Positions 211 through 41,569 of a stretch of 52,145 bases of DNA are shown here, in pieces. The notes beneath the pieces are model-generated. The model searched no databases. It saw only the letters and a list, made by a program, of their open reading frames with translations, and was not told the origin of the DNA. The DNA comes from Candidatus Methanophagales archaeon (GTDB taxonomy: Archaea; Halobacteriota; Syntropharchaeia; Alkanophagales; Methanospirareceae), in assembly GCA_030612835.1 (NCBI GenBank), contig JAUWND010000001.1, forward strand, positions 1 to 52,145, given 5' to 3'. The first letter of the stretch is position 1; every line of letters starts with the position of its first letter. The position numbers were made by a program, and so were the translations under genes.

Positions 211-243
211 TCTCACTCCTTGCAATGGGGCAACGCCAAAGGA

Positions 244-276
244 GAGCCGTATACGGGAAATCCGTACGTACGGTTC
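244..276 (+). ncRNA. Group II intron catalytic domain V
   Basis: GAGCCGTATACGGGAAATCCGTACGTACGGTTC. It has the same lower stem and AGC triad as the classical DV consensus GAGCCGUAU...ACGUACGGUUC, with a bulged hairpin and an A-rich loop. Confidence 0.85.
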
Positions 277-329
277 GATGAGGGGACGGAGGTCGTAAGA
301 CCTCCTCCTACTCTACTTGTAAAGTATAT

Positions 330-440: not shown

Positions 441-1796
441 CTAAAAGTCATCAAAATCAAATACAATAAAGCCTTCTTTTCTGAGTGTCTCTTTACCCGT
501 GATCTTTTTTGCAATTAAGCCAAAATGCTCTTTGCGTTTGTTGGTATTCCAGTCAACATATCCACTCTTCGTTCTCAGTTCCGCAAGGATGTCCAAAGCG
601 TCCTTAAACTTCAGGGTACGGTATTTGCATTCAAAGAATCCGATCTCTTTGCTTTCTTCGTCCAGGGTAACAATATCTATCTCATACTGATTCCTACCTT
701 TTTCATGTTTTGGGATTGCACCCCACTGACCACCGATTTTCGGGATTCGGCAGGGCAAAGAGTCCCGCTTTTCAATTAAAAATTCGCGACAGACCTTTTC
801 AAATACGTGTCCGAGATAGCGATTATACACGGCCTTAATTTCAGTAGCAGAAAAAATCGCCTCTTCTATAAATGTGATGTTCGGATTAATGAACCGGAAC
901 CAGAAATTGACGAAATTATCCTGGATATAATACCTGCTTCTTCTTGACTTCACATTATCTATCAATGGCGTCTTCCTTTCTACAAGCTCCACATCAATCA
1001 GGTTTCTAAGATATGGGCTTATATCAGTGCCTTTAGCGCCGATATAATCTCTAATTTCACCTAATTTCGTGTGGCCAGAAGCAATAGCACCCAATATCTT
1101 CTTATAGGTCTTCACATCACTAAACTCATATCTCATGAGGAAATCAATCTCCGATTTCAGAAAGGTGTCTACCTTCTTCAGCTCATCATCCAGCCATTCC
1201 CAGAAAGGATAATTTATCTTCGTAAGATAGTAGGGGATGCCATCAGAAAAACCGTATATTTCTATACGTTCTTCTGTTGTAGAACCCGGAAAAAAGTCGG
1301 TCAATTCCGCGAATTTCATAGCGCTCAATTTCAACTGCCCCGTTTTTCTGCCATACAAGGGTGCGTGATAGCTCAGAACTTGGCTTTCCATCATGGATAT
1401 GGACGAGCCAAGTAGTATTAATTTCGTCTTTGTATTTGCAAGAAGGACATCCACAATCCTCTGGAGTTCGGAAACAACTTTCGGGTTCTCTTTTATCAGG
1501 TTTGGAAACTCATCAATAATTATTATCTTGTCTTTCAAGAAATTGAATATGGCTTCCAGATCCGCCTCCACATATTTTATTCGGGGTTCCACCCGAGAAG
1601 CAACGTCTTTGAGCTTTTTGAGATTGTTCTCTTCGGTTGCAAGATAATAGATAAAATCTTTTCCTTTTACACTGGCAAGTGCAAGAGTTGTCTTTCCTAT
1701 TCTTCTTCGTCCGTAAATGACATATAAATCCAAATCGGGCCCGTTTAATTTCGCTTTGATTGCATCTAACTCTTTTTGCCTGTTTATGAATTTCAT
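441..1796 (-). CDS. AAA-type ATP-binding protein (archaeal ATPase family with DUF234-like C-terminus)
   Basis: 451-aa ORF with Walker A GRRRIGKTTL and Walker B IIIIDEF. The overall layout is typical of Arch_ATPase + DUF234 proteins. GGGGTGA lies just upstream of the ATG. Confidence 0.75.
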   Translation of the reverse strand: MKFINRQKELDAIKAKLNGPDLDLYVIYGRRRIGKTTLALASVKGKDFIYYLATEENNLKKLKDVASRVEPRIKYVEADLEAIFNFLKDKIIIIDEFPNLIKENPKVVSELQRIVDVLLANTKTKLILLGSSISMMESQVLSYHAPLYGRKTGQLKLSAMKFAELTDFFPGSTTEERIEIYGFSDGIPYYLTKINYPFWEWLDDELKKVDTFLKSEIDFLMRYEFSDVKTYKKILGAIASGHTKLGEIRDYIGAKGTDISPYLRNLIDVELVERKTPLIDNVKSRRSRYYIQDNFVNFWFRFINPNITFIEEAIFSATEIKAVYNRYLGHVFEKVCREFLIEKRDSLPCRIPKIGGQWGAIPKHEKGRNQYEIDIVTLDEESKEIGFFECKYRTLKFKDALDILAELRTKSGYVDWNTNKRKEHFGLIAKKITGKETLRKEGFIVFDFDDF

Positions 1797-2035: not shown

Positions 2036-3142
2036 TTAATGTGCATCCGCAATACCAATCGCCGCTTTTAGTTCTGCATCATCATCGTATTCTATATCTA
2101 ATTCATGCAGCACACTCACCCATTCTCTGTTCTTTAACAGCCAGTTGTAGTCATCTCTCAACCGTGAATTCTTCAAAATGCTATATGCAAGATTAACCTC
2201 AGGCGTTCGCTCCTTGTCTCGGTATGCAGCTCGGAGGATATTCTCCGCTTCTCGTTTAGCATCCGGAATCGAAGCGGCATCTATATTCAAAACATTGTAA
2301 AACGTTTTATCTCCTGTATATTTCTCCCAGTCGTCATGCTCATCTTTAATCTTTTCATATCTCTTCAGATCATCAAATCGTTCAAGCAATAGCAAATACA
2401 AATCGTCCTTACCCGTCCATAGCGCTCTCTTATCCTCTATCTCTTCCAATTCGTATTCATCAAGAGCTTCATTTATTATAAAATCGAGCATGTAATCATA
2501 TTCAAACCGCAACTGTGGGTTCTCCAGTATCTTACGAATCTCTAACTCCAGACTGCTCATGCTTTCTATTTCAGCACTTGATTTTACCTCCAGCACTTCC
2601 GTATCCTCATCAAGACCTAAAACATCATAAAAGGTAGGTGCGCCACGATGAAAGAGTTCAAGCCATGCACCTCGTTTTTCTAGTATATATTCCCAAGTAG
2701 CATACTCTTTCTCCTCTTTTAGCCAATCGTCATGATCGTCAATCATTTCACGCTTTATATTCGGTGTTAAACTCTGCGAAATCTTCAGGAAGAGCCGTAA
2801 AACAATATTATAAGTAGAACGCTTTTTCTCTGTACTCAACGCATCGTATGCCCGGTCAATCACTTCAGGTGGATAAACAGAACACTTCTTCTTCTGTTCA
2901 TATGCTTTTTTGAGATCATCCGTGGAAGCATCTTTTGCGACACAAAGGATGCAGTAATAGGTTGGCAGTCCTGATTTTAGGTCCTTTGTCCATTTTGGAT
3001 AAAGCTTCTCAAACCGCTCGATTTTATCATATATCTTATCTAACCGCGAAGGGTCCATGTATCGCGCGGGAACTTTCCAGTAAGGGTCGTCACATGAGTA
3101 GGGTTTCATCCATTCGTCAAATTCCCTCTTCTCCTCACCCAT
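2036..3142 (-). CDS. J-like protein with three degenerate J-domain repeats lacking HPD (not a canonical DnaJ)
   Basis: Three J-like blocks are present: TYYCILCVAKDASTDDLKKAYEQ...YPPEVIDRAYDALSTEKKRSTYN, TFYDVLGLDED...ILENPQLRFEYD, and TFYNVLNID...RTPEVNLAYSILKNSRLRDDYN. There is no HPD tripeptide, no G/F region and no CxxCxGxG zinc finger. The start is 5 nt after the hsp70 stop. Confidence 0.6.
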   Translation of the reverse strand: MGEEKREFDEWMKPYSCDDPYWKVPARYMDPSRLDKIYDKIERFEKLYPKWTKDLKSGLPTYYCILCVAKDASTDDLKKAYEQKKKCSVYPPEVIDRAYDALSTEKKRSTYNIVLRLFLKISQSLTPNIKREMIDDHDDWLKEEKEYATWEYILEKRGAWLELFHRGAPTFYDVLGLDEDTEVLEVKSSAEIESMSSLELEIRKILENPQLRFEYDYMLDFIINEALDEYELEEIEDKRALWTGKDDLYLLLLERFDDLKRYEKIKDEHDDWEKYTGDKTFYNVLNIDAASIPDAKREAENILRAAYRDKERTPEVNLAYSILKNSRLRDDYNWLLKNREWVSVLHELDIEYDDDAELKAAIGIADAH

Positions 3143-3147
3143 TTATC

Positions 3148-4887
3148 CTATTCCTTCGGTCTTAACTCCAGTCCCGAGCCGTCCTTAATACCAATTTCTT
3201 TTACCTGTTGCTTGTCCTGAAGCTCAATATCATTATAAAAAATGCACATTCCCTTAGTTAAAATGCCCTTTCTTCTGAGTTCGCGTTTTACATCCCGAAT
3301 ATGCATCTTTGGATTGAGATAGTAACTGAGGGCATCTTCTGTTTCCACATTCACAACGGTGACCTTTATTGAGTGTATCTTTAGCATTTTATCCATCCAT
3401 CTGTTCTTTTCCTCCTTTGACAGCCTTCCCCTTGCCTCCATTTTTACCGTTCGCTCATTGCCTGAATCATGGTCCTTTGCTGTTACATTTAATATACCAA
3501 ATTCCGCTCCTACCTCGAATGCAACATCAATTTTTGACTCATGCATCGGTTTTGGCTCTATTGAAATAAAGAACTCGCCCAGAAATCCTTTCTCTTCCGG
3601 AGAGATGCTTTCGCCCTGGTAAGCACTTATTTCTACCTCGTCCATAAAGTCCCGTGGATTTGTAAATCCCTTTGTCCTATTGATTGGTATCTTCGTGTTC
3701 CGCGTAATGATCTTTGCGACGGTACCATCATAAGTCAGGACACCAAGCGAGCGAGAGAGGACGTCGCTTATTTCCACCGGTCTTCTTATTTTACCTGATC
3801 TCTCTTTTAGGTCTTCCTTCATGGCGGCAACAGCAGCACCAAGTGCAACTACTTCTATTGGGTTCACATCTCGTACAGGCTCTTTACCAAGAAATTTATG
3901 CACAAACTCCTGCACCGCGGGTATGTATGTGGTTCCACCCACTAAGAGTATATCATCTATGTCTTCCGGAGAAAGCGATGCATCGTCAAGTGCCTGCTCC
4001 ATCGGCTTTTTCGTCCGTGCAATGAAATCGGTGATCAATTCGTTAAATTCATGCCTTGAAAGCTCATAACTAAATGCTATTGGTGCTCCCCTTTTAGTGC
4101 CAGCATAAGGCAAATTGATGGTCGCGCTCTCTTTGCGTGATAGTTCTATCTTCACACGCTCAACTTCTTCCCTTAGCGACTGAAGTACAGTCCGATTCTT
4201 ATCTTTCTTCTTTTTCAAGTCTATTTTATGCTTCTCTTCTATTTTATCAAGCGCGAAATCCACGATCCTTGCATCTATATCATCGCCTCCTAAATGGTTA
4301 TCCCCGCTCGTTGCATCAACATCGAAAAAACCTCCACCAATTGTGAGTATCGAAACATCAAACGTGCCACCGCCGAAGTCATAGACGAGCACTCTTCGCT
4401 CTTCATCCGCACGGAACCCTAAAGCTAATGCGGCTGCCGTTGGTTCGTTTAATATTCCGCGCACGTTTAAGCCCGCAATCTCACCTGCATCCTTAACCGC
4501 CTGCCGCTGCGGGTCCATGAAATATGCGGGCACTGTTATTACAGCATCAGAAAATGAAGTTCCTATTTGCTTCTCCGTGTCTTGAACGAGTTTCTTTATT
4601 ATATGTGCACCTATGTATTCTGGTGGATAAGACTCATTGCCTATTTCTACCCGGTGATCAGTGCCCATATACCTCTTGATTGACTTCACGGTGCGCTCTG
4701 GACTTGCAATTATATTACGCTTTGCTATACTACCCACCGCCACAGTTCCGTCCTCTTTGAAATATACAACCGAAGGCGTCACACGCTCGCCCTCGCCATT
4801 CGCTATTATTGTTGGCTCATCCACCTCTATAAACGCCACCCCTGAATTGGTCGTACCAAAATCAATCCCGATTACCTCTTCTTGCAT
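3148..4887 (-). CDS. Hsp70/DnaK-family ATPase with the helical lid replaced by a C-terminal ubiquitin-like (beta-grasp) domain
   Basis: Hsp70 signatures IGIDFGTTNSGVA, VITVPAYF, NEPTAAALA, VYDFGGGTFDVS and LVGGTTYIP are present. The SBD-beta is recognisable (ITRNTKIP...AYQGE...GILNVTAKD). The ATG at 4887 is preceded by AGGTGATGG; the ORF-track start at 4908 is a GTG. Confidence 0.85.
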   Translation of the reverse strand: MQEEVIGIDFGTTNSGVAFIEVDEPTIIANGEGERVTPSVVYFKEDGTVAVGSIAKRNIIASPERTVKSIKRYMGTDHRVEIGNESYPPEYIGAHIIKKLVQDTEKQIGTSFSDAVITVPAYFMDPQRQAVKDAGEIAGLNVRGILNEPTAAALALGFRADEERRVLVYDFGGGTFDVSILTIGGGFFDVDATSGDNHLGGDDIDARIVDFALDKIEEKHKIDLKKKKDKNRTVLQSLREEVERVKIELSRKESATINLPYAGTKRGAPIAFSYELSRHEFNELITDFIARTKKPMEQALDDASLSPEDIDDILLVGGTTYIPAVQEFVHKFLGKEPVRDVNPIEVVALGAAVAAMKEDLKERSGKIRRPVEISDVLSRSLGVLTYDGTVAKIITRNTKIPINRTKGFTNPRDFMDEVEISAYQGESISPEEKGFLGEFFISIEPKPMHESKIDVAFEVGAEFGILNVTAKDHDSGNERTVKMEARGRLSKEEKNRWMDKMLKIHSIKVTVVNVETEDALSYYLNPKMHIRDVKRELRRKGILTKGMCIFYNDIELQDKQQVKEIGIKDGSGLELRPKE

Positions 4888-4898
4888 TCTACCATCAC

Positions 4899-5930
4899 CT
4901 ACAAGCACATTCCCATATCTTTCATCTGCAAATCATCCTCTCTTATTTCTTCCTGCCGCTCGGTATTTAACGATTCCTTTGTCCTCTTCAGTTCTTCTAT
5001 CTCTTTCAATAGGTTCTCTTTCTCTTCTAATAGCTCTTTGTAATATCTAGTCAATGCAATGTCCTCAATAACGGTTTTGTCTTTTTTTGTTTCCAGCTCA
5101 GTCAAAGACTCCTGAATGGTGCGTAATTGCCTTTTTAACTCTTTAACTTTGACATTCAAAACTTCTTTGTTCTGTTCCAATTCATGTACCCGCGATTCCT
5201 CAGCCTCTCTTCTTTTTACTGCTTCTTCAATCATCTTCTTTAATTCTTCCTCGCGAGCATCGAGTTCTTTTGCTGATCTCTGAAGCATTTCCTCGTTTTG
5301 GTTCAATTCCCGCTCCCTTATATCCAATTCCTCGAACCTGCGCCTGAACACCCTTGACTCAAAGCCTCTCAAAATTTTCGATAAAATACCTTTAGACTTT
5401 GCTTCCGCTTCTCCTGCTTCACCACCTCTGGAGATAACCACCTCAGCAGGTCTAATTAGCTCACCGTTTAGCGTATACCCCTTCCTCACCAGAGAGAGAA
5501 TGGTCTTATCAGGAAGAAAAGTATTTGACGTGGCTTCAATCGCGGTATGCAATTCGTCATTTAACCTATCGCCGGGTGATGGTGCAATGGGAGTTACACC
5601 TAATGAACTCAGCAATTGGTTATAAGTCATTTCCAGATTATTTCTCGTCCCGTCCAGCATCTTTTCTACAAGTTCAAAGCCGCTATCCTGGTTAGTATTA
5701 TAGCTGTCCATTGCGCGATCGAGCGAATCGGCAACGCTAAGCAGTCGTCTGGCTAATTCACCATGCACTTTGCCACTCACTGCTTCCTCTCGGTCATCAA
5801 CTCTTTTTTTATATCTCGTAAAGTCGGATTTCAGTTTCTGGCATCTCTCTTCTGCGGATTTTATTAATTCTTCTTTTTCTGCCAGTTCCACCTTTGGAAC
5901 CACTACTAATTCATTCTCTTCCATAGGCAT
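4899..5930 (-). CDS. grpE: GrpE-type nucleotide exchange factor with a ~165-aa C-terminal coiled-coil extension
   Basis: GrpE core: RYKKRVDDREE...LLSVADSLDRA...GVTPIAPSPGDRLNDELHTAIE...VRKGYTLNGELIRPAEVVIS. It is followed by an E/K/L-rich heptad-like region running to the C-terminus. Confidence 0.8.
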   Translation of the reverse strand: MPMEENELVVVPKVELAEKEELIKSAEERCQKLKSDFTRYKKRVDDREEAVSGKVHGELARRLLSVADSLDRAMDSYNTNQDSGFELVEKMLDGTRNNLEMTYNQLLSSLGVTPIAPSPGDRLNDELHTAIEATSNTFLPDKTILSLVRKGYTLNGELIRPAEVVISRGGEAGEAEAKSKGILSKILRGFESRVFRRRFEELDIRERELNQNEEMLQRSAKELDAREEELKKMIEEAVKRREAEESRVHELEQNKEVLNVKVKELKRQLRTIQESLTELETKKDKTVIEDIALTRYYKELLEEKENLLKEIEELKRTKESLNTERQEEIREDDLQMKDMGMCL

Positions 5931-14751: not shown

Positions 14752-15921
14752 ATGCGCCAAACGATCCCCACATTTATTTTTTTGCTCTTATTCTTTTTTG
14801 TCATTGCAGTCGCAACATCTGGCGTCAGCGTAGTTAGTTCAGTAACAGGAGAGCAGAAATCTTCTGTTATGATCACAGGTTATCAAGTGAATCCGGAAGT
14901 GCTCATGTGCAACGATATAGGCACGGTAACGGTGACAGTAAAGAACATGGAACCGAAAACCGTAAACATAAATGAGGTACAGATGTTAAGTCAGGGAATC
15001 AAAGTGCTGAGCGATTCGTACTTTAACCCTGGTAGTTTAGGACCTGGGGGAGCTCTAAGTCTCACGTTCACTATAAAGGCGACTTGTCCCGACGGCATAT
15101 ATTATCCAAAAGTAATAGTAAATGGCGAAGGCGTCCAGAGCATAAGATACTCCTTTCCGGTGACTGTGGACAGTTCTCCTTTAATCATCGGCGTTAAGGA
15201 CGTTCCGGAAGATATTTTTAGAGGTGAGCGAGCAAAGATCGAGCTCGTTGTCGGTAATTCCAGACCAAATAACGTTACAGCCGTGAAGATCGTTACCGAG
15301 GATAAAGACGTGATGCCCGCGGAGGTCTTCATCGGCACGCTATCGGCAGACGACTCAGAAGTTGCCGCTTTCTATCTCACACCGCAAGAGAGTGGTGATT
15401 GTGTCCTGAACTTCAAGTTACAATTTAAAAACGGCGATAACTACCATTATACCGATTTGAGCGTGCCTTTGAATGTGACGGAGAGCAAAAAGAGCGCGGA
15501 ACTCATCCTCACCGGTATCGAAGTGGAATCCATGCCCGGGATGAATGTGTATAAGATCACAGGCGACATAAACAATGCGGGTTTAGAAGCAGCAAATAGC
15601 GTGGTTATGAAGGTATGTGATGCAGAAGGCATAGAGGCAATGCAGCCATACAAGGCCTATTTCGTGGGCTTGCTCAACGCGGACGATTTCAGCAGTTTCG
15701 AACTCAATGTAAAGATAGGTGGAAATGAAACGCAGGTGCCGCTTATCATCGAATACAAAGACGAAGATGGTATTCTTTTCTCGGAGCACGAATACATCTC
15801 GATAGAAAGTACTCAGGGGATCGCAAGTACAGGTGAATTGCCAGTTCCGATGATTGCTGTGGTCATTGTGATTGCAATAGTAGTCATTGGGATGATTGCG
15901 TATTCATGGAAGAAGAGATAG
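14752..15921 (+). CDS. Secreted, C-terminally anchored multi-Ig-like (CARDB/COG1361 S-layer-domain-like) protein
   Basis: It has an N-terminal signal/TM, repeated beta-rich modules (VTVKNM..., ELVVGNS..., ITGDINNAG...) and a C-terminal TM ending in KKR. The stop abuts the ABC ATPase start (TAGATG). Confidence 0.5.
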   Translation: MRQTIPTFIFLLLFFFVIAVATSGVSVVSSVTGEQKSSVMITGYQVNPEVLMCNDIGTVTVTVKNMEPKTVNINEVQMLSQGIKVLSDSYFNPGSLGPGGALSLTFTIKATCPDGIYYPKVIVNGEGVQSIRYSFPVTVDSSPLIIGVKDVPEDIFRGERAKIELVVGNSRPNNVTAVKIVTEDKDVMPAEVFIGTLSADDSEVAAFYLTPQESGDCVLNFKLQFKNGDNYHYTDLSVPLNVTESKKSAELILTGIEVESMPGMNVYKITGDINNAGLEAANSVVMKVCDAEGIEAMQPYKAYFVGLLNADDFSSFELNVKIGGNETQVPLIIEYKDEDGILFSEHEYISIESTQGIASTGELPVPMIAVVIVIAIVVIGMIAYSWKKR

Positions 15922-34250: not shown

Positions 34251-37200
34251 ATGAAGTTAGCGGCAATAACATGGGGAAGTGATATGGCATTGCTCATTAA
34301 TGCCTGTAAAGAGCTTGGTGTGGCGTTAAACGTCTGGTCAACCTATGAGGTAGAGGATGCGAGGAAGCGAAAGGTGTGCATAAAATCCCTTGGAGAGGCG
34401 GACATCATTCTCTTACATCCCTCAAACGAGGCACATTGGGATGAGATAATCGATGGACTGGATAAAGGAGTCCCTACAATCTCTTTTGGACATGATTCTT
34501 CCTACTGGTCGCTTTCTAATGTCCCCTTAGATGTTGTTGCAACGGTCAATGCATACCACACATATGGCGAGGCAGGGAACATAACTAATATGGTACGATA
34601 CATAGGAAAAGAGGTTTTAGGTCTTGATTATAAATATGAGAACCCAAAAGAGTCGCTGTGGGAGGGCATATATCATCCGGATGCCGAAATCGCTTTCGAC
34701 TGCTTAGATGACTATTTCGCGTGGTATAAACCCAATCGCAAGCATAAGGTCGGTATTCTCTTCTTTCGTACTTATTGGGCGAGCAGAGACCTTGAACCCG
34801 TGAATGCTCTGATTCGCGAATTAGAAAACGAGTTTGATGTGATACCTGTCTTCAGCTATGGGATGGGCGATAAGGAATTAGGCGCCAAATCGAGCGGAGA
34901 AGTCATTGACGCTTTCTTTATGGACATAATTGATGCATTCATAAATCTTCAATCGGCATTTAATGCCGGAGACGAGGGTGGGACGGTACCAGCACTGAAG
35001 AAACTCGATGTACCGGTATTCCACCCCGTTATGCCATACCATGCGACAGAAGAGGAATGGAGAAACGATATAATGGGGTTAAGCAGCCTGGAAGTTGGCT
35101 GGAGTCTTGCGATGCCGGAATTAGAAGGCGTAATCGAACCGATAATAATAGGTGCATTAAAAAGAGATAGTGATAACGAATTCGAGCAGCATACACAGAT
35201 AGAAGAACGGGTGAAAAAGATTGCGCTCCGGGTGAAGAACTGGATAGAGCTGAAAGATAAACCAAAATCAGACAGAAAAGTGGCATTTATCCTACATAAT
35301 AATCCATGTGCAAGCGTTGAAGCAACAGTAGGCGGGGCTGCGCATCTTGATGCCCTGGAAAGTGCCGCGAGGATATTGAGGAGAATGAAAGAGGCGGGCT
35401 ATTCTATCGAGCCACCGGAAGGTGGTAAAGCGCTTATAGAGACGATTATGTCCCGAAAGGCGATTTCTGAGTTCCGATGGACTACGATAGATGAAATTGT
35501 AAATAAAGGCGGGGCACTCGCAATGATAGATAAAGCAGAATATGAAAAGTGGTTTGATACACTCGCCCAAGAAGTGAAGGAAAGAACATGTGAAGCATGG
35601 GGAAATCCTCCTGGTGAGGCGAAGGATGGTGTCCCCGCCGCAATGGTTTATGATAATAAGATCGTGGTAACAGGCGTAAATTATGGAAATGCCGTTGTTT
35701 GCGTGCAGCCGAAGCGAGGATGCGCGGGTTCACGATGTGACGGGCAGGTATGCAAGGTTTTACACGACCCGGAAGTGCCGCCACCGCATCAATATCTCGC
35801 CACCTACCAGTACTTGGAAAATACCTTCGGCGCAGATGTGATTGTCCATGTAGGAACGCATGGCAACCTGGAGTTTTTGCCCGGCAAATCGGTCGCGCTC
35901 TCGGAGAGCTGCTACCCTGATATTGCAATAGGGAATTTGCCTCATCTGTATATCTACAATTCTGATAATCCTCCGGAAGGGACAATAGCAAAGAGGAGGT
36001 GTTATGCAACGCTCGTTGACCATATGCAGACAGTTATGACCGAAAGTGGCTTGTATGGCGATTTAAAAGGTCTTGAAGACAATATTGCAGAATATAACAA
36101 GGTTAAATCATCCGATAAGGCAAGAGCGCATGCGTTAGAGCACATAATTGTTGATTTGATAAGGAAGACGAAACTGTCAGAGGAGATAAAGCTTGATAAA
36201 AGGTTAGAGGATGGGTATTCATTTGCGGGAGTAATAGAACTTGCACACAGCGCTATCACTCGCATATACAACACGCAGATTCCTGATGGCATGCATATAT
36301 TCGGCGAAGTTCCCGGAGGTGGTAAGAAGGTCGAGTTAATCAATTCGATACTGAAACATGATTCAGAGCTAAGAATACTGATTTTTGGGCTTCTGGGACT
36401 CGATATAGCGCCATCCGAAGCGGAAAGCGAGCTTTTAGCTAAGGTGGATGGCTTTGCGAAGGAGTTTATTTCTGCCTTCTTATCAGAAGAGGAACCTCTT
36501 GAAGCAGCGAAGCGGATATTTGGGGGCGAATTTAAGCGGGAAAAGACAGAAAAGCTATATTCGATGTGGGAAAAGGTAATGGATATTTCTTCAAGGATAG
36601 TGGCATCGGACGAGATGGGTAGTTTGTTTCATGGCTTTGATGCAGGATACATCGAGCCGGGACCTTCGGGGCTCATAACAAGAGGAAAGCCCGAGATACT
36701 ACCCACAGGCAGGAACTTTTATTCTCTTGACCCGTTTAAGATCCCAACAAGAGCTGCCTGGGAGATCGGTAAGCGACTTGCAGATGGAGTGATCGGGAAA
36801 TACGAGGCGGAGAACGGAAAGCCGCCTGAGAACATTGCTATGTACTGGACGGCATCAGACATCATGTGGGCAGATGGCGAGCAACTAGCACAGATATTGT
36901 ATTTAGTCGGCGTGGAGCCAGTTTGGAAAGGCGGAAAGGTAAATGGATACAGGATAATGCCATTAGAAGAACTTGGTCGCCCGAGGATAGATGTAACAAT
37001 AAGAGTGAGTGGAATCACGAGAGATTGCTTTTACAATTGCATCGAACTCGTAGATGAGGCAATAGAGGAAGTTGCTATGCTTGACGAACCGATAGAAGAG
37101 AACTATGTGAGAAAACATGCATTGGACACGGAGAAGAAGAATAGAACAGAAAATGAGACAGAATATGCACATATATTCGGAAGTAAGCCGGGCACGTATG

Positions 37201-37988
37201 GAAACGGCGTGAATTTAGCGGTCTATGCATCTGCGTGGAAGGAGGATAAAGACCTGTCAGATGTGTTTGTGCATTGGAGCAGATATGCATACGGGAAGAG
37301 ATTTTTTGGTGTCGAAGCGCAGGATACGCTCGTTGCGCAGCTTGGAACTGTTAACCTCACTTTCAATAAGACAGTTACAGATGAATACGATCTGTTGGGC
37401 TGCTGTTGCTATTTCGGGACTCATGGCGGTCTAACAACTGTGGCGAAGGAGATTTCCGGGAATGATGTGCACGCATATTATGGTGATACGAGGGACCGGG
37501 ACAAAATAGAAGTACGGAGCCTTGCAGACGAGGTGAGAAGGGTTGTCCGGTCGAAGTTGCTGAATCCGAAATGGATAGCTGGAATGAAGCGTCATGGCTA
37601 CAAAGGTGCTGGTGACATATCAAAGCGGATAGGAAGGGTTTACGGCTGGGAAGCGACCACGCAAGAGGTAGATGATTGGATATTCGATGATATTGCAAGG
37701 ACCTTCGTATTGGATACGGAGATGAGGGAGTTCTTTGAGCAGAACAACCCCTGGGCGTTGGAAGAGGTCGGAAGAAGATTGTTAGAGGCTTATGAACGTG
37801 GGCTATGGGATGCAGATGATGAAGTAATAAAAGGATTGAAGAGCGCATACCTCGAGATGGAAGGGTGGATAGAAGAGAAGATGGGCGATGTGAAAGGCGA
37901 TTTCCAGGGTGGTGCGATAGATGTGATGCCAATAGAGGATTTTAAAGTATTGAATGAAAATGTGAAAGAGATACAAAAGGGTGAATAG
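34251..37988 (+). CDS. cobN: CobN/BchH-family large chelatase subunit (class I, ATP-dependent chelatase)
   Basis: The 1245-aa ORF is CobN-like over its whole length, for example HVGTHGNLEFLPGK, YIYNSDNPPEGTIAKRR, LLPTGRNFYSLDP and RVSGITRD. Confidence 0.85.
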   Translation: MKLAAITWGSDMALLINACKELGVALNVWSTYEVEDARKRKVCIKSLGEADIILLHPSNEAHWDEIIDGLDKGVPTISFGHDSSYWSLSNVPLDVVATVNAYHTYGEAGNITNMVRYIGKEVLGLDYKYENPKESLWEGIYHPDAEIAFDCLDDYFAWYKPNRKHKVGILFFRTYWASRDLEPVNALIRELENEFDVIPVFSYGMGDKELGAKSSGEVIDAFFMDIIDAFINLQSAFNAGDEGGTVPALKKLDVPVFHPVMPYHATEEEWRNDIMGLSSLEVGWSLAMPELEGVIEPIIIGALKRDSDNEFEQHTQIEERVKKIALRVKNWIELKDKPKSDRKVAFILHNNPCASVEATVGGAAHLDALESAARILRRMKEAGYSIEPPEGGKALIETIMSRKAISEFRWTTIDEIVNKGGALAMIDKAEYEKWFDTLAQEVKERTCEAWGNPPGEAKDGVPAAMVYDNKIVVTGVNYGNAVVCVQPKRGCAGSRCDGQVCKVLHDPEVPPPHQYLATYQYLENTFGADVIVHVGTHGNLEFLPGKSVALSESCYPDIAIGNLPHLYIYNSDNPPEGTIAKRRCYATLVDHMQTVMTESGLYGDLKGLEDNIAEYNKVKSSDKARAHALEHIIVDLIRKTKLSEEIKLDKRLEDGYSFAGVIELAHSAITRIYNTQIPDGMHIFGEVPGGGKKVELINSILKHDSELRILIFGLLGLDIAPSEAESELLAKVDGFAKEFISAFLSEEEPLEAAKRIFGGEFKREKTEKLYSMWEKVMDISSRIVASDEMGSLFHGFDAGYIEPGPSGLITRGKPEILPTGRNFYSLDPFKIPTRAAWEIGKRLADGVIGKYEAENGKPPENIAMYWTASDIMWADGEQLAQILYLVGVEPVWKGGKVNGYRIMPLEELGRPRIDVTIRVSGITRDCFYNCIELVDEAIEEVAMLDEPIEENYVRKHALDTEKKNRTENETEYAHIFGSKPGTYGNGVNLAVYASAWKEDKDLSDVFVHWSRYAYGKRFFGVEAQDTLVAQLGTVNLTFNKTVTDEYDLLGCCCYFGTHGGLTTVAKEISGNDVHAYYGDTRDRDKIEVRSLADEVRRVVRSKLLNPKWIAGMKRHGYKGAGDISKRIGRVYGWEATTQEVDDWIFDDIARTFVLDTEMREFFEQNNPWALEEVGRRLLEAYERGLWDADDEVIKGLKSAYLEMEGWIEEKMGDVKGDFQGGAIDVMPIEDFKVLNENVKEIQKGE

Positions 37989-37995
37989 GAATAAG

Positions 37996-38026
37996 ACCAC
38001 GAGATTACACAAGATTACACAGAGAG
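37996..38026 (+). repeat. R1 repeat copy just downstream of cobN
   Basis: ACCACGAGATTACACAAGATTACACAGAGAG. Confidence 0.75.
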
Positions 38027-38186
38027 AGAAAACGAAAGTATCTTAATGGGAGTCCAGCTATTCCTTTATCTGGTGATAAAAAAGATACATTGCTCGTTAG
38101 GGGTGAAACCAGATGAAAATTGAAGAACGATTTACGGGGAGGGAGAAGGGAAAAAGAAGGTTTTGAATTCGTCATTGGTATCAGAT

Positions 38187-39040
38187 ATGTTAGTTTTACT
38201 TCTTTTGATGGTTTTTGTGCTCCTTGCAACTCTTTCAGCAGCGGCAGAACCGGGAGCAGTATGGATCAATGCGCCTTAATATGTAGAGGAAGAAGGAACT
38301 TTTGATTCAAACGTTGTGGTTGTTACCGCTGTTAGGGCTGGACGCTTGAATGAGGCGACAATACCCGTAGGGATGTGGAAGTTAATGGGTAAAAATACAA
38401 TCAGAGTGCTTCCTGACGTTCCAGGGCTTAAGTGGCTGTCGGCGTATATCTCTGGAAAAGCTCGCAGTGCATAGTTGAAGATAATGTCTGTGAGGGATGT
38501 TCCCATGGAATTTACCTGGGTAATTCGTCTGAGAACATCGTGCGGGACAACATCTGCAATAACGGCACTAAAGCCAGACCCTTGTTCCTGGACGGAGACG
38601 GTATACACCTCGACTACTCGGCGGATAATAATCTAACTGTGAACAACACATGCTGCTGGAACGAAGACGAGGGCATTGACGTATGGACTAGTTCTAATAA
38701 CACCATAAAGAGGAATGAAATCTGTGAGAATAAAGAAGGTGGTGTTGATTTGATCTGCTCCTCAAATACAAAAATATACCTCAACAACTTCGTGAACAAT
38801 GCTGGAAGTAAAGACAGGGATTCCAATATCTGGAACTCAACATCAAAAATAACATACACTTACAAGGGCAATACCTACACCAATTATTTAGGCAACTACT
38901 GGAGCGAATACAACGGAAGCGATGCCGACAACGATGGACTAGGCGATACTCCTTATCGCATAGATTCAGATAAAGACAATTATCAGCTGATGGAATCCTG
39001 GGAAAAGTACGTTATGCTTTATGGGAAATATAAATCATAA
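38187..39040 (+). pseudogene. NosD-like parallel beta-helix surface protein, disrupted (premature TAA after the signal peptide plus a frameshift)
   Basis: The signal peptide MLVLLLLMVFVLLATLSAAAEPGAVWINAP ends in TAA at 38277. Beta-helix repeats resume in other frames (GVYLWKSSQCIVEDNVCEGCSHGIYLGNSSENIVRDNICNN...IDVWTSSNNTIKRNEICEN...DADNDGLGDTPY). Confidence 0.55.
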
Positions 39041-39081
39041 AATAAGTGTGAAATGTTATAGCTAAAAAGCATTACAATAAT

Positions 39082-39352
39082 ATGATGGAGATCATATATA
39101 CTTCGCTGATATACACCCTTTACTGGATGTCAAGAGTTATCCTGATCATAGCAATAGGTATATTTGCGACGAGTTTCGCGGTTAACATCGGGCTAATGCG
39201 GAAATTTGACCGGTTGATTAATACCTTTATGTACAACTAGAAACTACAAAGGTGGCAGGGTAATTAATGGTTTTCACCGATTCCTGTATGTGATGGGAAT
39301 ACATGAAAGTCGAGAATGAGGAAACATGAAAGAATTCGAGAATTGCAATTGA
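39082..39352 (+). pseudogene. Remnants of a second Gate-domain gene (first 52 codons) and a second radical SAM gene (promoter-proximal 25 nt + 8 codons)
   Basis: MMEIIYTSLIYTLYWMSRVILIIAIGIFATSFAVNIGLMRKF... parallels the N-terminus of the 31107 gene. Separately, 39301-39351 matches 30094-30145 almost base for base (ACATGAA.GTCGAGAATGAG..AACATGAA...TTCGAGAATTGCAA). Confidence 0.7.
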
Positions 39353-39463
39353 AAATCAAACAATACAGAAAAAAGTTTTATCAAATAAATATCGAAAAGA
39401 TTATATGGCGTCAATGTTAATATGTTATGTTAAATAGTCACAAATAAAAGAGGTGGATAACAA

Positions 39464-41569
39464 ATGACTCACCATGTTAGACGGGCGATACTGCCTTTTA
39501 CTGCAATTGTAGGGCAAGATACGATGAAGAATGCGCTTATTTTGAATGCCATTAACCCCCGTATAGGCGGAGTACTTATCAGAGGCGAGAAAGGAACTGC
39601 GAAATCCACCGCTGTTCGTGCTCTCGCAGAACTGTTACCAAAAATCGAAATGGTTAATGGCTGTACGTTCAATTGCAATCCTTCTGATACGCGTGAGAGG
39701 GGCGACGTCTGCTATGCCAAAAGAACGAACGGAGAAGATCTAAAAGTGACGAAGCGAAGGATGTGGGTCGTAGACCTCCCTCTCGGTGCTACAGAAGACC
39801 GGGTCGTTGGCTCAATAGATGTGGAAAAGGCGATAAAAGGCGGGATAAAGGCGCTGGAGCCCGGTATATTGGCTGCTGCAAATAGGGGTATTCTTTATAT
39901 TGACGAGGTAAATCTTTTAGATGATCACGTTGCCGATGTCATTCTGGATTCGGCTGCGATGTCAATAAACGTGGTTGAGCGAGAGGGTGTCTCTATCTCT
40001 CACCCCTCTAAGTTCATTCTGGTAGGTACAATGAACCCGGAGGAAGGCGAGCTTAGACCACAATTATTAGATCGTTTTGGGCTGCAAGCAAGTGTAGCGA
40101 GTATAGATGATGCCGATATGCGGGTAGAAATAGTGAAACAGGTGGAAAGTTTTGAAAGAGACCCGGAAGAGTTCAAGGAACGATTCGAGGGGAAGCAAAA
40201 AGAGTTACGTGATAAAATAGCGCATGCGAAACAGATAGTTAATGAGGTTGCAATTAGCGATGATTTACTGAAATTAACCGCAGAAACATGCATTAAACTC
40301 GGTGTAAGAACACATAGGGCTGAAATCGTTATAACAAGAGCGGCAAAAACTATTGCTGCTTTCGATAGCCGGAAAAAAGTTACCTTCGAGGATATAAAAG
40401 AGGCAATGGAATTAGCTCTTCCACATAGAATGCGTAGAAAACCCTTTGAATCTCCTAGTTTGGATAACAAGAAACTCGATGAGATGATGCAGGACACAAA
40501 GAAAGAGCATGAAGAGGAGATGAAGGAGAATACGCAACAGCAACAGAAACAGAAACAGAAACAGCAAAAGAAAGAGAAGGAAGAGCAAAAACAGCAGCAT
40601 GAACATGAGCAACCCGATAAGAATCCAGAAGGTCAAGATGACAAGGACGATGTAAGCGAATCACAAAACGAATCAGTTTTCAATATTGGCGACCCGATTG
40701 ATACAAGGGCAGTGCGGCAAAAGCAGAAGAAAGACAAGACATATCGCAGGAAGACTTCTGGGAGAAGGATCCCTACGCTCTCGCTTCGCAATAACGGGAA
40801 GTACATACGGCACGGTATCCCAAAGGGTAAAATAACGGATGTTGCGCTCGATGCGACGATACGAGCTGCGGCAGTATATCAGAAAGAGAGAGTGGTTGAT
40901 TCCGATTTAGCAGTAGTAATAAAAAGTCAGGATATTCGTGAGAAGATTCGGGTAGGAAAAATATCAACAGCAACGATGTTTGTTGTGGACGCATCAGGTT
41001 CAATGGGTGCGAATAGAAGAATGGAGAGCGCAAAAGGTGCTGTCCTTTCATTATTACTGGATTCGTATCAACAAAGAGATAAGGTCGGTATGGTCGCGTT
41101 TAAAGGTGACCAGGCAGATGTTTTGCTGCCTCTCTGTTCAAGCAGTGATTTGGCAGTTGAGAGGTTAAAGGAACTCCCGACAGGAGGGAGAACACCCTTG
41201 GCTGCCGGTTTGGAACAGGGCTTAAATCTCCTGATGGCGGAAAAGCATCGTGATGAAGAAGCGATACCAATTCTGCTGTTAATATCCGATGGTCGTGCAA
41301 ATGTGTCCGCAGGAGGGAGCAAAGAGCTAGAGAAGGAGCTGTTAGCGCTCGCAGAACAAGCACGAGCTAAAGGTATATATGTGATTGTCATTGATACAGA
41401 AATAGTCAGCGACTCGTTTATTCAGATGCAGCTTGGATATTGCAGAGCGATAGCAAGCTATTCCGGAGGTAAATATTACCCGATTGCGGATTTGACCTCG
41501 GGGGCAGTGCGGGATATTGTTATCCGTGAGCGAAACATGTTAAACGATCTGCAGACGGTTGTGGGCTGA
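39464..41569 (+). CDS. ChlI/ChlD-type chelatase subunit: AAA+ module, Q/K/E-rich linker and vWA domain in one polypeptide
   Basis: [38 protein letters not shown] (Walker A), LYIDEVNLL (Walker B), the linker [21 protein letters not shown], and the v[15 protein letters not shown]. Confidence 0.85.

Follow-up and report, generated by a model that had tools for sequence, protein, structure and literature searches.

A ubiquitin-family domain in place of the helical lid in a second, specialised Hsp70 of archaea

Introduction

What is a ubiquitin-like (Ubl) domain doing at the C-terminus of an archaeal Hsp70? The question is raised by a gene on the minus strand of contig JAUWND010000001.1 (NCBI GenBank assembly GCA_030612835.1) of a Candidatus Methanophagales archaeon, of which we analyzed positions 1 to 52,145, a stretch of 52,145 nucleotides hereafter called the window. 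The gene encodes an Hsp70, here termed Hsp70-Ubl, whose last domain had been read in a preliminary description, made from the letters of the sequence, as ubiquitin-like. To our knowledge, the helical lid, the hydrophobic linker and the trigger exerted by the His-Pro-Asp (HPD) motif of J domains are regarded as near-universal in Hsp70, and we know of no ubiquitin conjugation system in Euryarchaeota. We find that a ubiquitin-family domain forms the tail and takes the place of the lid, and that Hsp70-Ubl is the middle member of a conserved three-gene module forming a second, specialised Hsp70 system beside a canonical DnaK.

Results

The C-terminal tail is a ubiquitin-family beta-grasp domain

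The open reading frame (ORF) of Hsp70-Ubl is 586 amino acids (aa) long when read from a GTG at 4908 and 579 aa when read from an ATG at 4887. The ATG is probably the true start, as it fits the lengths of the homologues, which are 578-584 aa for the closest ones listed and 565-591 aa for most. The protein ends in ...GRLSKEEKNRWMDKMLKIHSIKVTVVNVETEDALSYYLNPKMHIRDVKRELRRKGILTKGMCIFYNDIELQDKQQVKEIGIKDGSGLELRPKE, followed by a TAG stop codon, identical to the reading given in the preliminary description, and the span assigned there to the Ubl domain (3151-3381) corresponds to residues 510-586 of the 586-aa ORF.

Four independent lines of evidence concur that this tail is a ubiquitin-family beta-grasp domain. 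The 80-residue tail alone matched the Pfam ubiquitin family PF00240 with E=1.3e-6 and 28.5 bits (curated cut-off 25.4 bits) and gave Rad60-SLD as a second match; the whole protein scored 23.8 bits against PF00240, slightly under the cut-off. When 30 diverse tails of the family were compared with Pfam, 27 matched PF00240 (best E 1.5e-10), 15 matched Rad60-SLD and none matched the ThiS/MoaD-type families. A profile built from these 30 tails retrieved single ubiquitin chains from the PDB (E ~3e-6), with tail positions 28-89 aligned to ubiquitin residues 7-69 and no large gaps.

The AlphaFold2 (AF2) model of the tail alignment had a predicted local distance difference test score (pLDDT) of 88-93 across the Ubl domain, with elements in the order beta1-beta2-alpha1-beta3-beta4-3(10)-beta5. 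Foldseek searches of the PDB with this model returned SUMO1, TINCR, ubiquitin, NEDD8, Caldiarchaeum ubiquitin and Bacteroides ubiquitin, with E values of 2.5e-7 to 4e-6, a probability of 1.00 and target-normalised template modelling (TM) scores of 0.75-0.89. The ubiquitin pattern noticed earlier in the tail is borne out by family match, PDB profile, AF2 fold (pLDDT ~90) and Foldseek alike, and the hidden Markov model (HMM) searches assign the domain to the ubiquitin family, with no match to the ThiS/MoaD-type families that had been considered beside it.

The domain ends in ...GLELRPKE, at the equivalent of ubiquitin residue 73, and the C-terminal Gly-Gly is absent. No Gly-Gly was seen at the Ubl end in about 130 of 156 homologue tails, which were looked over by eye and not scanned systematically. 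Because the terminal Gly-Gly is missing, the Ubl reads as an integral, non-conjugatable domain and not as a modifier, in agreement with what had been proposed for the window protein. Release of the Ubl by cleavage and its attachment to targets, in the manner of ubiquitin or of the SAMPs, is very improbable; the fold alone speaks for it. Besides the missing Gly-Gly, the C-termini of the family are variable, ending after beta5 or running into acidic tails, and no conserved cleavage motif precedes beta1. No E1, E2 or JAMM gene was found among the annotated ORFs of the window or the annotated neighbourhoods of the homologues; whole genomes were not searched.

Two observations concern the ends of the domain in other members of the family. 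In many Methanoperedens-type homologues, for example P0048-P0082, the Ubl is followed by a short acidic tail (...EQEEE, ...EQEKEKATS), and one homologue (P0047) has an extension of ~35 aa beyond the Ubl that ends in GGGCSIR. The window protein stops directly after beta5.

We also ran the tail profile against an exhaustive library of 1.84 billion proteins, where it recovered polyubiquitin and tandem-Ubl repeat proteins. Since these swamped the search, it demonstrates that the profile recognises ubiquitin but provides no census of other fusions. True polyubiquitin aside, the top matches, such as P0121 and P0144, contain 8-20 tandem ubiquitin-like repeats without Gly-Gly. No new architecture was found by the tail profile in an index of 5.8 billion proteins, which yielded short fragments of the same family.

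The Ubl replaces the helical lid

The similarity of Hsp70-Ubl to DnaK stops just ahead of the Ubl. In phmmer searches of PDB sequences the best matches were the DnaKs of M. tuberculosis and Geobacillus, with an alignment ending at residue 505, and a BLASTP comparison with the canonical ANME-1 (anaerobic methanotrophic archaea, group 1) DnaK showed 40% identity over residues 11-512 and no match beyond. The last stretch in common, RLSKEEKNRWMDKMLK, corresponds to the first half of DnaK lid helix A. It is predicted to be helical, with a pLDDT of ~57-63 in the isolated tail and ~85-88 in the full-length model, and its residues R2, L3, K5, K8, W11, M12 and K14 are each at least 94% conserved among 156 sequences. 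Lid helices B-E are absent, and the Ubl begins after a connector of 3-4 residues; the full-length AF2 model shows a single 12-residue helix ahead of it. The Ubl replaces the alpha-helical lid past the first 16 residues of helix A, and so lies where it had been placed in the earlier description, directly after the beta-subdomain of the substrate-binding domain (SBD-beta) and a short segment, at the position of the DnaK lid.

The full-length model had a mean pLDDT of 81.9 and a predicted TM score (pTM) of 0.78. It lay at a root-mean-square deviation of ~4 A from ATP-type, domain-docked structures of DnaK (7kzu, 4b9q, 5nro) and of BiP, and more than 20 A from undocked ADP states. Foldseek matched the model to DnaK with E=1.6e-58 and to Gram-positive-type DnaKs with 44-46% identity.

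This arrangement raises the possibility that the Ubl is a compact surrogate of the lid, covering the SBD-beta cleft when ADP is bound, resting on the nucleotide-binding domain (NBD) when ATP is bound, and slowing client release. The conserved face of its beta-sheet, described below, would then form contacts with its own chain. The exchange falls exactly at the lid position and keeps the conserved residues of helix A, and the junction between helix A and the Ubl is predicted confidently only in the full-length context (pLDDT ~83-88, compared with ~57-63 in the isolated tail). The Ubl starts ~20 residues past the start of helix A, which is about where helix B of E. coli DnaK begins to cover the cleft. 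We nevertheless consider a lid surrogate less likely than not: the pLDDT of the Ubl itself is no higher in the full-length model, that model represents the ATP-type docked form and does not show the closed state, and the recruitment of a ubiquitin-type fold with an Ile44-like face would be left unexplained. The lid is, moreover, dispensable for basic Hsp70 function, so a replacement need not keep its role.

In the rest of the Hsp70, the catalytic motifs are kept and the linker is changed. The protein matches PF00012 with E=3.6e-149, and the NBD motifs GIDFGTTNS, IKR.MG, NEPTAAALA and DFGGGTFDV are intact, with invariant motifs in sets of both 44 and 156 sequences. The linker reads (V/I)EIS in all 156 family sequences versus VLLL in ANME-1 DnaK, and the segment around it (model residues 358-376) is predicted to be disordered, with pLDDT below 50. 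In DnaK, allosteric coupling and stimulation by J domains are transmitted through this hydrophobic linker. Gly151 (window 4456-4458, minus strand; within NVRGILNEPT) occupies the position of DnaK Arg167, the contact for the Asp of HPD. We considered whether loss of this Arg co-varies in general with loss of HPD and rejected the idea: Gly or Ala occurs at the position only in the ANME-1/ANME-2c clade, about one third of the sequences, and Arg is kept outside it (~60% of the family), making the change a feature of that clade only.

The fusion occurs in several orders of archaea

More than 150 homologues, from many assemblies and several archaeal orders, carry the same Hsp70-Ubl architecture. The helix-plus-Ubl tail was present in all of the 120 best homologues (54-93% identity, mostly 565-591 aa), and a further 60 loci came from scanning metagenomes with the tail profile. 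By name, the sources are Methanophagales/ANME-1, Ca. Methanogaster (ANME-2c), the ANME-2 cluster, Ca. Methanoperedens (ANME-2d), unclassified Methanosarcinales and Altiarchaeales, all of them uncultured or known from enrichment cultures only. The window itself belongs to ANME-1, and one contig of a Methanophagales metagenome-assembled genome encodes a protein 94% identical to that of the window. A viral scan found no viral copies of Hsp70-Ubl. Chance similarity, or the joining of two genes by misassembly or frameshift, is ruled out by the E values, the fold match and more than 150 independent sequences.

As a side observation, the hsp70-Ubl gene is split into 2-3 ORFs, an NBD fragment and the rest, in five loci (L006, L011, L015, L042 and L079). 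These splits could be frameshifts, pseudogenes or sequencing errors.

The preliminary description knew of no Hsp70-Ubl fusion, and our full-text literature searches likewise found no prior description of the fusion or of the module. The papers that we consulted on Aravind-lab conflict systems, on archaeal DnaK evolution and on CoCoNuTs are silent on Hsp70-Ubl. The pair PF00012+PF00240 is already precomputed for a dozen database entries; the domain pair is, as far as we found, visible in databases yet undiscussed.

Hsp70-Ubl is the middle gene of a conserved module

In the window, the minus strand from 2036 to 5930 holds three tightly packed genes, grpE, hsp70-Ubl and a gene for a protein with three J-like domains, the last of which starts 5 nt past the Hsp70-Ubl stop codon. 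For 80 related loci, ORFs were called and then sorted into classes by phmmer searches. Both the GrpE gene and the J-like gene stood beside Hsp70-Ubl in 54 of the 80 loci, 52 of them with the gene order of the window. Loci without the full triad were cut at a contig end, except for two in which no J-like gene was found. Taken singly, the GrpE gene adjoined Hsp70-Ubl in 56 of the 80 and was missing only where the contig ended, and the J-like gene followed Hsp70-Ubl in nearly all related loci. Loci of the Altiarchaeales type have a different gene order and a J-like partner remodelled with a zinc ribbon and HEAT repeats. grpE, hsp70-Ubl and the J-like gene are a conserved three-gene module with Hsp70-Ubl in the middle. 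The genes that flank it vary by lineage and are housekeeping genes, as are those in the rest of the window.

Both partners of Hsp70-Ubl are unusual. The GrpE protein matches PF01025 over residues 10-167 with 99 bits (cut-off 25.8, E=3.1e-28), and it scores under every GrpE equivalog cut-off of NCBIfam. The GrpE domain is N-terminal and is followed by a charged coiled-coil extension whose length differs from locus to locus, giving totals of 236-549 aa. In the J-like protein, the first domain (J1) matches Pfam DnaJ (PF00226) with E=6.8e-8. Comparison of the three domains by hhalign with the J domains of canonical ANME-1 DnaJ gave probabilities of 98.5% for J1, 96.4% for J2 and 91.4% for J3, with 0.2% for an N-terminal control. 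The HPD motif was found in none of the three J-like repeats in 59 sequences. In its place J1 and J3 carry S.YP and TPxVN, respectively, both conserved, and the loop has become shorter.

Searches with PADLOC defence models gave no match to any protein of the triad. On this result, together with the lack of viral copies and the housekeeping flanks, we reject an origin of the module in defence or in mobile elements.

The module is a second Hsp70 system

ANME-1 genomes also encode a canonical DnaJ, with HPD and zinc finger, and, next to or near its gene, canonical DnaKs of 610-613 aa with a full lid. These DnaKs score 877-882 bits and pass the NCBIfam equivalog cut-offs of 822.55 and 648, whereas Hsp70-Ubl of the window fails both DnaK equivalogs, with 519 bits versus 822.55 for TIGR02350 and 527.5 versus 648 for NF001413. 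On one 86.8-kb contig of ANME-1 GoMg1 (QBUL01000189.1), the 613-aa DnaK and DnaJ (locus L081) and the Hsp70-Ubl triad (locus L006) occur together. Because canonical DnaK and DnaJ coexist with it in ANME-1 genomes, the Hsp70-Ubl module is a dedicated second machine, a specialised Hsp70 system and not the housekeeping one. The canonical pair, once on the same contig, also rules out Hsp70-Ubl as the sole housekeeping Hsp70 of ANME-1.

No grpE was found within the 10-kb flanks of the canonical ANME-1 DnaK and DnaJ genes (L081, 3760-5601 and 10001-11143; L083, 8048-11140). The only grpE noticed in the ANME-1 loci was that of the Hsp70-Ubl module, and the long GrpE of the module might serve both Hsp70s of ANME-1.

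The conserved face of the Ubl points to a protein-protein interface

We mapped the conservation of 156 sequences onto ubiquitin numbering through an HMM alignment. Outside the core, the conserved positions are an Asn at ubiquitin K6 (97%), a Phe at I44 (90%), an Asp at G47 (86%), a Glu at Q49 (88%), a Glu at H68 (92%) and an Arg at V70 (81%). Jointly they make up the face of the beta-sheet that corresponds to the receptor-binding, or Ile44, face of ubiquitin. A Y-L-N-P motif is conserved at the end of beta2, and helix alpha1 varies at the positions that face outward. From this pattern we deduce a conserved protein-protein interface, whether within one chain or between chains.

We infer that the Ubl is a docking module whose Ile44-type face recruits a partner protein, and give this a probability of about 45%. 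Such a module would be built into the C-terminus of the chaperone, and its conserved beta-sheet face (Phe, Glu, Arg, Asn, Glu) would bind the partner in the way that eukaryotic Hsp70 is connected to other factors by its EEVD tail or by the Ubl of BAG-1. The most probable candidate partners would be the helical co-chaperones encoded alongside: either the coiled coil of GrpE or the J-like domains, whose missing HPD deprives them of the canonical route to Hsp70. With no helical lid and a polar (V/I)EIS linker, fast substrate exchange and non-canonical allosteric control would be expected, and the tethered partners would then set the choice of clients and the timing.

Several points weigh against docking. 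The binding partners named here are candidates that we infer, and the conserved face could equally pack on the SBD-beta of the same chain. In the most divergent clade (L074-L080), Glu takes the place of the Phe at the Ile44 position; this, together with the remodelled J-like protein of Altiarchaeales, means that the pairing of Ubl and J-like protein is not uniform. Finally, in one ANME-1 genome a canonical dnaJ with HPD and zinc finger lies directly downstream of the triad (L003, 8957-10096), so that cross-talk with the canonical system is possible and a canonical J protein may also serve Hsp70-Ubl. Docking of a partner and the lid-surrogate function discussed above are not mutually exclusive.

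The same face would also suit a link to degradation, in which the Ubl would pass clients from Hsp70 to the archaeal proteasome, PAN or Cdc48 as a prokaryotic counterpart of the coupling between Ubl and proteasome seen with BAG-1, ubiquilin or Rad23. The domain comes from the ubiquitin family proper and not from ThiS/MoaD, its conserved face is of the receptor type, and a C-terminal Ubl on a chaperone is analogous to the linkage between Hsp70 and degradation in eukaryotes. Even so, such a link seems quite improbable to us: no gene for a proteasome, PAN, Cdc48, JAMM or E1/E2 protein accompanies the module, either in the window or at the annotated loci, and the genes that are strictly linked encode co-chaperones, not proteases. 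We also know of no described archaeal equivalents of the eukaryotic Ubl receptors Rpn1, Rpn10 and Rpn13. A broader version, in which the Ubl of these Euryarchaeota is a signal that couples Hsp70 to the proteasome, PAN, Cdc48 or a large co-chaperone scaffold, is in our view unlikely.

Features of the window

The coordinates of the module and of other features of the window are collected in Table 1. The gene for the protein with ATPase_2 and DUF234 domains adjoins the module in the window but is not kept beside it in other lineages. The genes for a CobN-type chelatase and for a ChlI/AAA protein with a VWA domain, with an unannotated ORF between them, could be those of a chelatase for cobalt or nickel in the synthesis of corrinoids or F430.

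Table 1. Position, strand and basis of the features discussed
Feature	Position	Strand	Basis or remarks
Whole Hsp70-Ubl gene	3148..4908	-	ORF call; GTG 4908 or likelier ATG 4887, TAG stop 3148-3150
Ubl beta-grasp domain	3151..3369	-	Residues 514-586 (73 aa); PF00240, family profile, AF2, Foldseek
Lid helix A remnant RLSKEEKNRWMDKMLK	3379..3426	-	Residues 495-510; DnaK alignments end here; predicted helix
SBD-beta	3427..3759	-	Residues 384-494; Pfam HSP70, DnaK alignments, beta strands in AF2 model
Inter-domain linker (RRPVEISDV)	3760..3819	-	Family alignment versus canonical ANME-1 DnaK
Hsp70 NBD, catalytic motifs intact	3820..4887	-	Pfam HSP70 (E=3.6e-149); family invariants
GrpE-type nucleotide exchange factor	4899..5930	-	343 aa; Pfam GrpE (E=3.1e-28)
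GrpE domain	5430-5903	-	Residues 10-167 of the GrpE-type protein
GrpE coiled-coil extension	4902-5429	-	~175 residues; weak matches to largely coiled-coil families
Triple J-like partner protein	2036..3142	-	368 aa; Pfam DnaJ, hhalign
J-like domain J1	2789-2971	-	No HPD
J-like domain J2	2480-2644	-	No HPD
J-like domain J3	2129-2311	-	No HPD
DDPYWKV motif, N-terminal in J-like protein	3071-3091	-	Conserved
Group II intron catalytic domain	242-316	+	Rfam RF00029; 58.8 bits, E=4.5e-9
Archaeal ATPase_2 + DUF234 protein	441-1796	-	PADLOC candidate PDC-S27 (E=1.9e-40)
CobN-type chelatase and ChlI/AAA + VWA protein	34251-41569	+	1245 aa and 701 aa
Unannotated ORF between the two preceding genes	38432-39040		202 aa
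ORF between Yip1-domain protein and MacB-type ABC transporter pair	14752-15921	+	389 aa; no Pfam match

Discussion

The answer that we favour to the question raised by this locus is that the Ubl docks a partner protein onto a specialised Hsp70. The family alters the lid, the linker and the HPD of the J partner together, yet has been kept across several archaeal orders beside a canonical DnaK, and as a natural experiment it can reveal what the Hsp70 cycle is able to do without or to exchange for something else. Ubiquitin-proper folds are rare as integral domains in prokaryotes, and this is one such case, with a bearing on how ubiquitin-like adaptors became tied to chaperones. Should the version that we call unlikely hold, in which the Ubl is a signal coupling Hsp70 to downstream machinery, ubiquitin folds acting as adaptors in chaperoning or triage would predate eukaryotic ubiquitin signalling or have arisen independently of it, and J-like domains without HPD would represent a new kind of Ubl receptor. 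The module suggests that a proteostasis system has gone unrecognised in the methane-oxidising archaea, which control marine methane flux, and it should interest chaperone specialists and students of ubiquitin evolution alike.

Comparison with known systems

The canonical DnaK-DnaJ-GrpE system resembles the module in its NBD with all catalytic motifs, its SBD-beta and its neighbouring genes for GrpE and J-type proteins, and the NBD of Hsp70-Ubl is of the short Gram-positive/archaeal type found in such DnaKs. Its best PDB sequence matches, to the DnaKs of M. tuberculosis and Geobacillus, extend across both the NBD and SBD-beta. Unlike canonical DnaK, Hsp70-Ubl has half of helix A and then the Ubl, has (V/I)EIS and not VLLL as its linker, fails the equivalog cut-offs and is 40% identical to the DnaK of its own lineage. 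The J partner of the module lacks HPD and its GrpE has a C-terminal coiled coil, again unlike the canonical system.

The SAMPs, Urm1, ThiS/MoaD and the ubiquitins of Caldiarchaeum and Asgard archaea share the beta-grasp fold, and Caldiarchaeum ubiquitin was among the Foldseek matches. Each of them is a separate protein with a terminal Gly-Gly, and E1, E2 or JAMM genes accompany its gene, whereas the Ubl of Hsp70-Ubl is a C-terminal domain without Gly-Gly that matches no ThiS/MoaD family but does match PF00240 and Rad60-SLD.

With Pam16/Tim16 the partner protein of the module shares a J-domain fold without HPD. It differs in having three tandem J-like domains and in being a cytosolic protein of archaea, and the module has no HPD-bearing partner of the Pam18 type.

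In the ribosome-associated complex, the lidless, atypical Hsp70 Ssz1, with a truncated SBD, forms a fixed pair with the J protein Zuotin beside canonical Hsp70s. Ssz1 has no Ubl, the functional HPD-bearing J domain of Zuotin acts on Ssb, and Hsp70-Ubl shows no sign of ribosome association. What the two systems have in common is a specialised paralogue of Hsp70 that lacks a normal lid and has a dedicated J-type partner.

In BAG-1, ubiquilin, Bag6 and TBCB/TBCE, too, there is a Ubl, which acts as an adaptor. There it sits on a co-chaperone or shuttle factor and not on the Hsp70, in eukaryotic cells that have a ubiquitin-proteasome system, and we know of no receptors of the BAG-1/ubiquilin type in these archaea. 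What these proteins share with Hsp70-Ubl is an integral, non-conjugatable Ubl carried by a component of the chaperone system.

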